Virus record (IMG/VR): IMGVR_UViG_2703718778_000002
Coordinates: 1-6,661 of that record
Reading direction: 5' to 3' (one strand)
DNA length: 6,661 nucleotides
DNA from: a virus
Lineage: Duplodnaviria > Heunggongvirae > Uroviricota > Caudoviricetes
How positions within the stretch are numbered: the stretch's first letter is position 1; each line of letters opens with the position of its first letter. The notes under the pieces are model-generated. The model was given only the letters and a program-made list of their open reading frames with translations, did not search any database and was not told where the DNA came from. Positions 2,371 through 2,605 of the stretch are shown here, piece after piece. A program made the position numbers and the translations under genes.

Positions 2371-2564
2371 GCGCCTGTTTTTTGTAAATGCTTTCGGGAA
2401 CGCTCCAGTGATGAACAAAAAACAACCTGATTCGACACTAAAAATTTTTATTCTTCAATATATCAATAACTTATAGTGGTGGTGATGGTGCCATAAAAAT
2501 CAAAAAATGCGCCTTTTTCCGCGCCCCTCCGCCCCGTGGACAGGCCACCCCCACCAGGAGTACC

Positions 2565-2590
2565 TACAAAAAAGCCGGATTTCTCCGGCT
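2565..2590 (-). terminator. Rho-independent terminator downstream of the SSB gene
   Basis: Plus strand AGCCGGA-TTTC-TCCGGCT (2573-2590) forms a 7-bp stem with a 4-nt loop, preceded by A6 (2568-2573), which is a T-tract on the minus strand; it sits 16 nt 3' of the SSB stop codon. Confidence 0.65.
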
Positions 2591-2605
2591 TCTGTCACTC
2601 GTTGC

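Follow-up and report, generated by a model that had tools for sequence, protein, structure and literature searches.

A repeated element downstream of ssb and of the capsid gene in an Escherichia coli phage satellite is very probably a lambda-type cos site, with two sites that may address two classes of helper phages

What is the function of a sequence element that occurs twice in a short stretch of viral DNA, once behind a capsid gene and once behind ssb? The DNA analysed here (6,661 nt, positions 1 to 6,661 of IMG/VR record IMGVR_UViG_2703718778_000002) is referred to as the window. All genes of the window are on the minus strand, and the following ones lie next to the two copies of the element:

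59–1948, minus strand: ORF for a fusion of a ClpP-like protease and a major capsid protein
1945–2172, minus strand: orf75, an ORF of 75 aa with no assigned function
2606–3028, minus strand: ssb (ORF and RefSeq annotation of the homologue), the gene whose transcript would be ended by the hairpin of the second copy

The capsid fusion and orf75 together fill positions 59 to 2172 between the two copies. The window also contains an ORF of 109 aa, a primase gene (3589–5337) and several small ORFs.

The top direct repeat of the window (D1) aligned positions 4–54 with 2541–2591 (51 nt, 76% identity, spacing 2537). The initial annotation had placed a second copy of the element directly downstream of ssb. 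This was confirmed: the hairpin of the second copy starts 14 nt past the ssb stop codon, and the repeat is longer than had been given. The interval 2537–2596, to which the second copy had been assigned, spans only the hairpin, the half containing cosQ and the left cosN flank. The remaining part of the element, with the predicted 12-nt overhang (2523–2534), is located at about 2400–2536. Locus L001 of E. coli 2011C-4251 is an island with 97.5% identity to the window. In L001 the similarity between the copies extends over about 100 nt at 79% identity (BLAST E = 1.7e-18) and runs on past window position 1, and we concluded that copy 1 is cut by the window edge. As judged from the comparisons described below, the repeat marks the packaging sites of a phage satellite and not a terminator cassette.

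Of 5426 complete E. coli genomes, 2343 had matches to positions 2440–2600 in a sensitive BLAST search, at 3775 places in total. The core common to the E. coli matches was 2460–2572, and not the hairpin. The core also matched lambdoid and Stx phages; in annotated records its place there is between the lysis genes and the genes for the small and large terminase subunits, and homologous sequence was present at the very ends of the linear records of mEp460 and mEp460_4F5. Over 133 nt, a stretch that extends through cosB, the second copy (cos2) had 90% identity with the cos regions of phages 1720a-02 and CP-1639. With these phage cos matches in hand we abandoned two earlier ideas, namely late-promoter activator sites and immunity repeats of the P4 type (seqA/B/C). 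By sequence, cos2 is a full lambda-type cos with a terminator-like hairpin ahead of it, and its predicted parts are:

2400–2566, minus strand: cos2, a lambda-type cos (cosQ variant, cosN and class-B cosB), from alignments with the lambda ends, mEp460, 1720a-02 and an O157 prophage
2568–2591, minus strand: intrinsic-terminator-like hairpin of cos2 (−15.4 kcal/mol, z = −4.75, 0 of 200 shuffles as stable)
2559–2565, minus strand: cosQ equivalent AGGTACT (lambda GGGTCCT), 24 nt upstream of the predicted overhang, from alignment
2521–2536, minus strand: cosN, with the predicted 12-nt cohesive end GGGCGGAGGGGC at 2523–2534 and the flanks CACG and GCGG
2476–2490, minus strand: CACCATCACCACCAC run, bp 45–59 from the cohesive end, R3-equivalent, proposed to be what TerS recognises in a class-B cosB
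2461–2473, plus strand: IHF consensus TATCAATAACTTA (WATCAANNNNTTR) by consensus match, cosB bp 62–74, I1-like position
2405–2427, minus strand: distal conserved cosB block GGTTGTTTTTTGTTCATCACTGG, common to phage cos sites, from alignment, with the conserved core TTTTTTGTTC

The stretch CACG-GGGCGGAGGGGC-GCGG of cos2 aligned with ACG-GGGCGGCGACCT-CGCGG of the joined lambda ends, and the nick positions of cos2 were inferred by this alignment with lambda GGGCGGCGACCT. Both copies had the lambda layout, with the cosQ heptamer, a spacer of 23–24 nt, a cosN of the form CACG-GGGCGG......-GCGG and then cosB. The R3 site of lambda is at bp 50–65 (PMC9026076). The IHF match at 2461–2473 was the sole match to the consensus on both strands of the 6661-nt window, for which we estimate about 0.2 matches by chance. 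The closest E. coli phage relatives of cos2 have GGGTCCT instead of AGGTACT. The AGGTACT variant together with the full cos architecture was found in many phage contigs of 30–55 kb, and the relatives in Yersinia and Moellerella also have AGGTACT in the one cos that they carry. We had considered AGGTACT as a crippled, termination-defective cosQ mutant and dropped the idea in this form, since many contigs of phage size use AGGTACT with a full cos.

The first copy (cos1) was recovered as far as the window reaches:

1–54, minus strand: cos1, cut by the window edge, from alignment and folding
35–54, minus strand: hairpin of cos1
31–36, minus strand: U6 tract of cos1
22–28, minus strand: canonical cosQ GGGTCCT, then the spacer, which the window shows to within 3 nt of the predicted nick

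The cosN and cosB of cos1 lie beyond the window (L001, 11880–12000), and this cosB belongs to class A with an TCATCATCATCAT run. The cos1 site was 89% identical over 143 nt to cos sites of O157:H7 prophages. Since each of the two copies is nearer to a different phage cos (89–90%) than to the other copy (79%), they do not represent a simple or recent internal duplication. The predicted overhangs of cos1 (GGGCGGGCGGGC) and cos2 (GGGCGGAGGGGC) differ at 2 of 12 positions, and packaging units with one cos1 and one cos2 end would therefore have imperfect, mismatched ends. Such ends may be a cost, perhaps tied to the variability of the overhang and to the islands with identical overhangs (L149, L154, L205) that are described below. 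Window position 1 is located 3 nt from the predicted nick in the cosN of cos1 (L001 11997–12001). By our estimate, a start so near to the nick would occur about once in 1000 cases if random. It would be expected for a contig that ends at a cohesive end, as in particle-derived DNA, or for an assembly break at cos.

L001 is inserted between clpS and cspD of E. coli 2011C-4251, and a 17-nt att repeat delimits an island of 10,554 bp (10.55 kb). Its genes encode an integrase, an HTH/AlpA-like regulator (phrog_2790), a primase, Ssb, the capsid fusion and a PerC-like protein. The protease part of the capsid fusion was 51% identical to the capsid fusion of an O157 prophage of the helper type. Directly after the primase gene, at about 3340–3585 of the window, we observed an iteron array with direct and inverted repeats of the GGTAGA/TCTACC type, which is likely the replication origin of the island, as described for phage-inducible chromosomal islands (PICIs). 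A size of about 10 kb, att repeats, an integrase, an AlpA-type regulator, a primase with iterons and cos were all present, and a full virion gene set was missing. By its gene content the host element is thus a Gram-negative PICI related to EcCICFT073. On the island, whether circular or concatemeric, the two cos sites are separated by one arc of 2,537 bp and another of 8,017 bp. We consider it very probable that the element downstream of ssb is the lambda-type cos2 of this 10.55 kb E. coli PICI, and we infer that its two sites are for two helper classes.

The alignment of the cosB regions separated two classes:

Class A cosB, TCATCATCATCAT run: found in cos1, in the O157 prophage and in L003, a related island, at its post-ssb site
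Class B cosB, CACCATCACCACCAC run: found in cos2, in 1720a-02 and, with a looser fit, in mEp460

Between the two phage classes, the TerS proteins (DUF1441 family) have 123 of 159 residues in common. Their differences gather in the N-terminal 65 or so residues, and the C-terminal part is nearly identical. The N-terminal stretches read MDGELKNMKLNINQLAALSGLHRQTV...GSNEKKKLY in class A (O157-type) and ...GGHESNLKLY in class B (1720a-02, CP-1639). The fetched loci together yielded 167 cos-like sites, and each site was paired with the first ORF downstream of it. A CAT run occurred with TerS class T1 (GSNxKxKLY) in 65 of 66 cases, a CAG run with class T3 (NRGTVRKR) in all 19 cases, and a CAC run with class T2 or T4 (GGxxSNLxLY or DRRTMS) in 10 of 10. 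The type of run at the R3 position thus covaried with the N-terminal class of TerS in more than 100 phage loci. This looks as would be expected for a specificity determinant at the R3 position; the covariation could also stem from physical linkage instead of recognition, as cosB adjoins terS. Across the phage loci (L111–L225 and others), the CAT, CAC or CAG run about 45–60 bp from cosN predicted the N-terminal class of the downstream TerS almost perfectly. It is possible that the trinucleotide run represents a general specificity code of cosB in this phage group. Class-B helpers were detected in 226 E. coli genomes and class-A helpers in 402, and the strain that harbors L001 (2011C-4251) itself has a class-A prophage.

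Other loci had other sets of sites. The related island L087 (IMG/VR UViG_2690316346_000015) has three cos at 697, 6180 and 8697, which are of class B, of class A and of a third, mEp460-like type, and a TerS-like ORF follows the third cos. In L003 (W224N island) a cosN identical to that of lambda (GGGCGGCGACCT) was present at 5715–5800, on the strand opposite to the post-ssb class-A cos. The cos slots are B and A here, A and lambda-type in L003, and three sites in L087.

The most serious alternative is that cos2 is a genuine cos that was carried along with a phage-derived head module and is redundant, a relic or even a liability, so that only cos1 matters. Published data on EcCICFT073 (Fillol-Salom 2018 ISME J, 2019 Mol Cell; Murialdo & Feiss 2022) favor such a view. 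Its cos1 is required for transfer by lambda and phi80, and deletion of its cos2 increases transfer (PMC6092414, PMC6739421, PMC9026076); with a given helper, a second cos may thus have no effect or be a burden. The mismatch between the overhangs of cos1 and cos2 points in the same direction, as do the relatives in other genera: in the capsid-fusion relatives from Kluyvera, Buttiauxella, Yersinia and Moellerella there is one cos, directly behind the capsid gene, and no duplicated cos was found near capsid-fusion genes of other genera. The conservation of cos2 argues against redundancy. All its subsites are intact. The hairpin stem, the cosQ equivalent and the left half of cosN were invariant among 12 unique copies, the R3-like run differed at one position in a single copy, and the distal cosB block was near-invariant among island copies. 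The two-cos block was retained in 143 complete E. coli genomes with 97–100% identity (at least 80% coverage). The exact cos2 string was found in 20 IMG/VR island contigs, always downstream of ssb. In contigs that extend further, orf75 and the capsid gene came next, and in those that reach far enough these were followed by cos1 (about 2537 nt after cos2) and orf93. The backbones of these islands vary, with primase identities from 34 to 91% and integrase identities from 22 to 99%. Four further IMG/VR matches of the string were due to chance and had no cos downstream; three of these four were in one long coding region. Finally, we found phage contigs that combine AGGTACT, the CACCATCACCACCAC run and a TerS N-terminus like that of 1720a-02 (T2), which is the exact configuration of cos2. 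Since natural phages with this configuration exist, cos2 is a full mimic and not a decayed site. We consider a redundant cos2 unlikely.

The right half of the predicted overhang was the most variable stretch among the 12 unique island copies. Among islands that are otherwise 97–99% identical, the 12-nt overhang of cos2 was GGGCGGAGGGGC, GGGCGGGCGGTT, GGGCGGGAGGGC, GGGCGGCGGGGC or another sequence (2523–2534 of the window and the equivalent positions in L087–L110), and in three islands (L149, L154, L205) it was the same as the overhang of cos1. This variability may result from repair of mismatched annealed ends or from exchange with phage cos sites.

Alternatively, cos2 might act as a decoy that titrates the helper terminase or causes unproductive cleavage and thereby lowers the helper yield. 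PICIs commonly interfere with the packaging of their helpers (PMC6739421), and cos2 closely mimics a phage cosB. On the other hand, no protein similar to Rpp was detected among three small ORFs (including orf75 and orf93), which had no functional PHROG annotation and no PDB sequence match. On a replicating island an additional cos is equally a proper substrate for packaging, and sequence does not separate decoy from substrate. We regard a decoy function as quite improbable. Pfam gave no match for orf75, orf93, the 109-aa ORF and three other small ORFs; a divergent or unrelated analogue of Rpp may still be encoded. Rpp may be unnecessary in this island, as its cosB is phage-like.

The initial annotation had interpreted the two copies as a terminator element. 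A rival explanation on this basis is that a duplicated Rho-independent terminator module insulates or delimits the capsid unit as a cassette and that the similarity of the flanking sequence is incidental. Direct folding indeed showed a strong GC hairpin followed by U6 immediately after the stop codon in both copies, with equal spacing from the hairpin to the next conserved block. In cos2 the stem is formed by 2574–2579 with 2584–2589, the loop is GAAA, two more A-U pairs are possible, and the U6 tract corresponds to the plus-strand A-run 2568–2573. The hairpin of cos1, right after the capsid stop codon, had −15.1 kcal/mol (z = −3.75), and no shuffle was as stable. A generic terminator scan listed neither hairpin; we think that this is explained by extension of the stems into the A/T flanks, which uses up the T-run. 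With a GC stem-loop, U6 and a stop codon upstream, the hairpin at 2568–2591 is a plausible intrinsic terminator of the ssb transcript, and to this extent the earlier assignment stands. It took the least conserved part of the repeat for the whole and missed cos as the main identity. The stems of cos1 and cos2 have almost nothing in common, and the conservation across genomes and phages falls in the cos part. Hairpins were variable or absent in the capsid-fusion relatives of other genera, and the relatives in Yersinia and Moellerella keep the cos without a hairpin. Phages have only a weak AT-rich hairpin at the equivalent place (−4.9 kcal/mol, z = −0.8).

The notion of a mobile cassette of about 2.5 kb, bracketed by the two copies, did not hold. 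The conserved block ssb-cos2-orf75-capsid-cos1-orf93 reaches beyond both copies, and in the IMG/VR islands ssb upstream of cos2 (97–100%) and orf93 downstream of cos1 (78–88%) are inside this block. Among the 143 complete E. coli genomes with the two-cos block, no variant was found that lacks or swaps exactly the 2.5 kb interval. A terminator module as the main identity of the element is largely refuted, and we consider it very improbable.

Several observations concern the surroundings of these hairpins. In phages including lambda, cosQ is directly preceded by an AT-rich inverted repeat (TGATAAnnATTATCA) and a T-run (L085, about 5143–5165; lambda 48440–48470, L007), and the islands have GC terminator hairpins at the place of this repeat. 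Another strong, bidirectional GC hairpin (2331–2372, −18.1 kcal/mol) is located between cosB and orf75. A promoter-like site on the plus strand at 2261–2290 could yield an antisense RNA of about 75 nt that ends at a T7 run; Rfam matches in 2261–2372 were weak and to terminators only (ctRNA, STnc130).

That the element encodes a small RNA or a leader peptide is hardly credible: the CAT/CAC runs resemble His codons and the hairpin could work in both directions, at the end of a C-rich plus-strand RNA, but the plus-strand T-tract is poor, and Rfam (E ≤ 1) gave no family at 2440–2600 and only terminator-like partial matches at 2323–2462. A His-rich leader peptide from the CAC/CAT run was rejected, as the His frame lacks a start codon in copy 1 and a TGA lies in frame shortly before it. 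Moreover, across related phages the run changes to CAG or CAT along with the TerS class, as for a DNA-binding site.

We return to cos2 as a packaging site and propose the following course of events. On the minus strand, the ssb stop codon is followed by the GC hairpin with U6, AGGTACT, the 24-nt spacer, cosN with the predicted end GGGCGGAGGGGC and cosB, which consists of the CAC/CAT run at the R3 position, the IHF site and the distal block. The hairpin with its U6 would end the transcript of the replication gene ssb. During growth of a helper, a class-B TerS of the DUF1441 family would bind the cosB of cos2, IHF would bend the cosB DNA, and the large terminase (TerL) of the helper would nick cosN near 2534/2535. 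Island DNA would then be packaged from cos2 towards orf75 and the capsid gene. Termination would presumably be set by head fullness, as proposed for EcCICFT073, so that a nearby cos would be skipped. The cos1 site would act likewise with class-A helpers; cos2 would serve phages like 1720a-02 and CP-1639, and cos1 would serve O157-type prophages.

With slightly more doubt than confidence, we suggest that two phage-mimicking cos sites of differing cosB specificity may allow two classes of lambdoid/Stx helpers to package the island without an adaptor of the Rpp type, and that slots may be swapped among islands to follow the local helpers. Two cos sites in such an island were already known; two sites of differing cosB class would be new. 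The identification as a packaging site corrects the annotation of a satellite that is common in Shiga-toxin-producing E. coli. If two TerS classes are indeed addressed, this would be a simple, adaptor-free route to a wider helper range, unlike the Rpp mechanism of EcCICFT073, and the type of run at the R3 position versus the class of the TerS N-domain would give a sequence rule for which prophages mobilise which islands.

The closest known system is EcCICFT073. It resembles the island described here in its size of about 10 kb, the integrase, the AlpA-like regulator, the primase with an iteron origin, the presence of a capsid homologue and the use of two cos sites to hijack the terminase of a lambdoid helper. 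Both cos sites of EcCICFT073 are functional when cloned (PMC6092414, PMC6739421). Its sites are reported to combine a lambda-like cosQ and cosN with a non-phage cosB, and that of cos1 is read by an Rpp-TerS heterodimer (PMC6092414, PMC6739421, PMC9026076). In contrast, both sites of the present island have a phage-like cosB, of two classes, and no Rpp was detected among its three small ORFs. L003 resembles EcCICFT073 by its capsid and decoration genes. It has ssb, orf93 and the position of the post-ssb cos in common with the present island; its second site is inverted and has a lambda-identical cosN, whereas the sites of the present island are direct repeats 2537 bp apart.

The cos regions of lambda and of lambdoid and Stx phages (such as mEp460, 1720a-02, CP-1639 and O157:H7 prophages) have the same order and spacing of subsites as cos2: the heptamer precedes the end by about 23–24 nt, CG and CGCGG flank a 12-mer of the form GGGCGG..., and cosB is composed of an R3-position element, an IHF site and a distal block. 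While the phage cos sits between the lysis genes and terS, cos2 follows ssb in a satellite and has no terminase gene downstream. It also differs by AGGTACT instead of GGGTCCT, by a strong GC terminator hairpin instead of a weak AT hairpin, and by R elements that are trinucleotide runs unlike the R sequence of lambda. The cos-type SaPIs (SaPIbov5, and SaPIbov4 with two putative cos) and P4 are likewise satellites that carry a helper cos for the terminase of the helper, and SaPIbov5 also encodes a capsid homologue. Their sequences, hosts and helpers are unrelated to those of the present island, and the terminases involved are HNH-dependent or of the P2 type.
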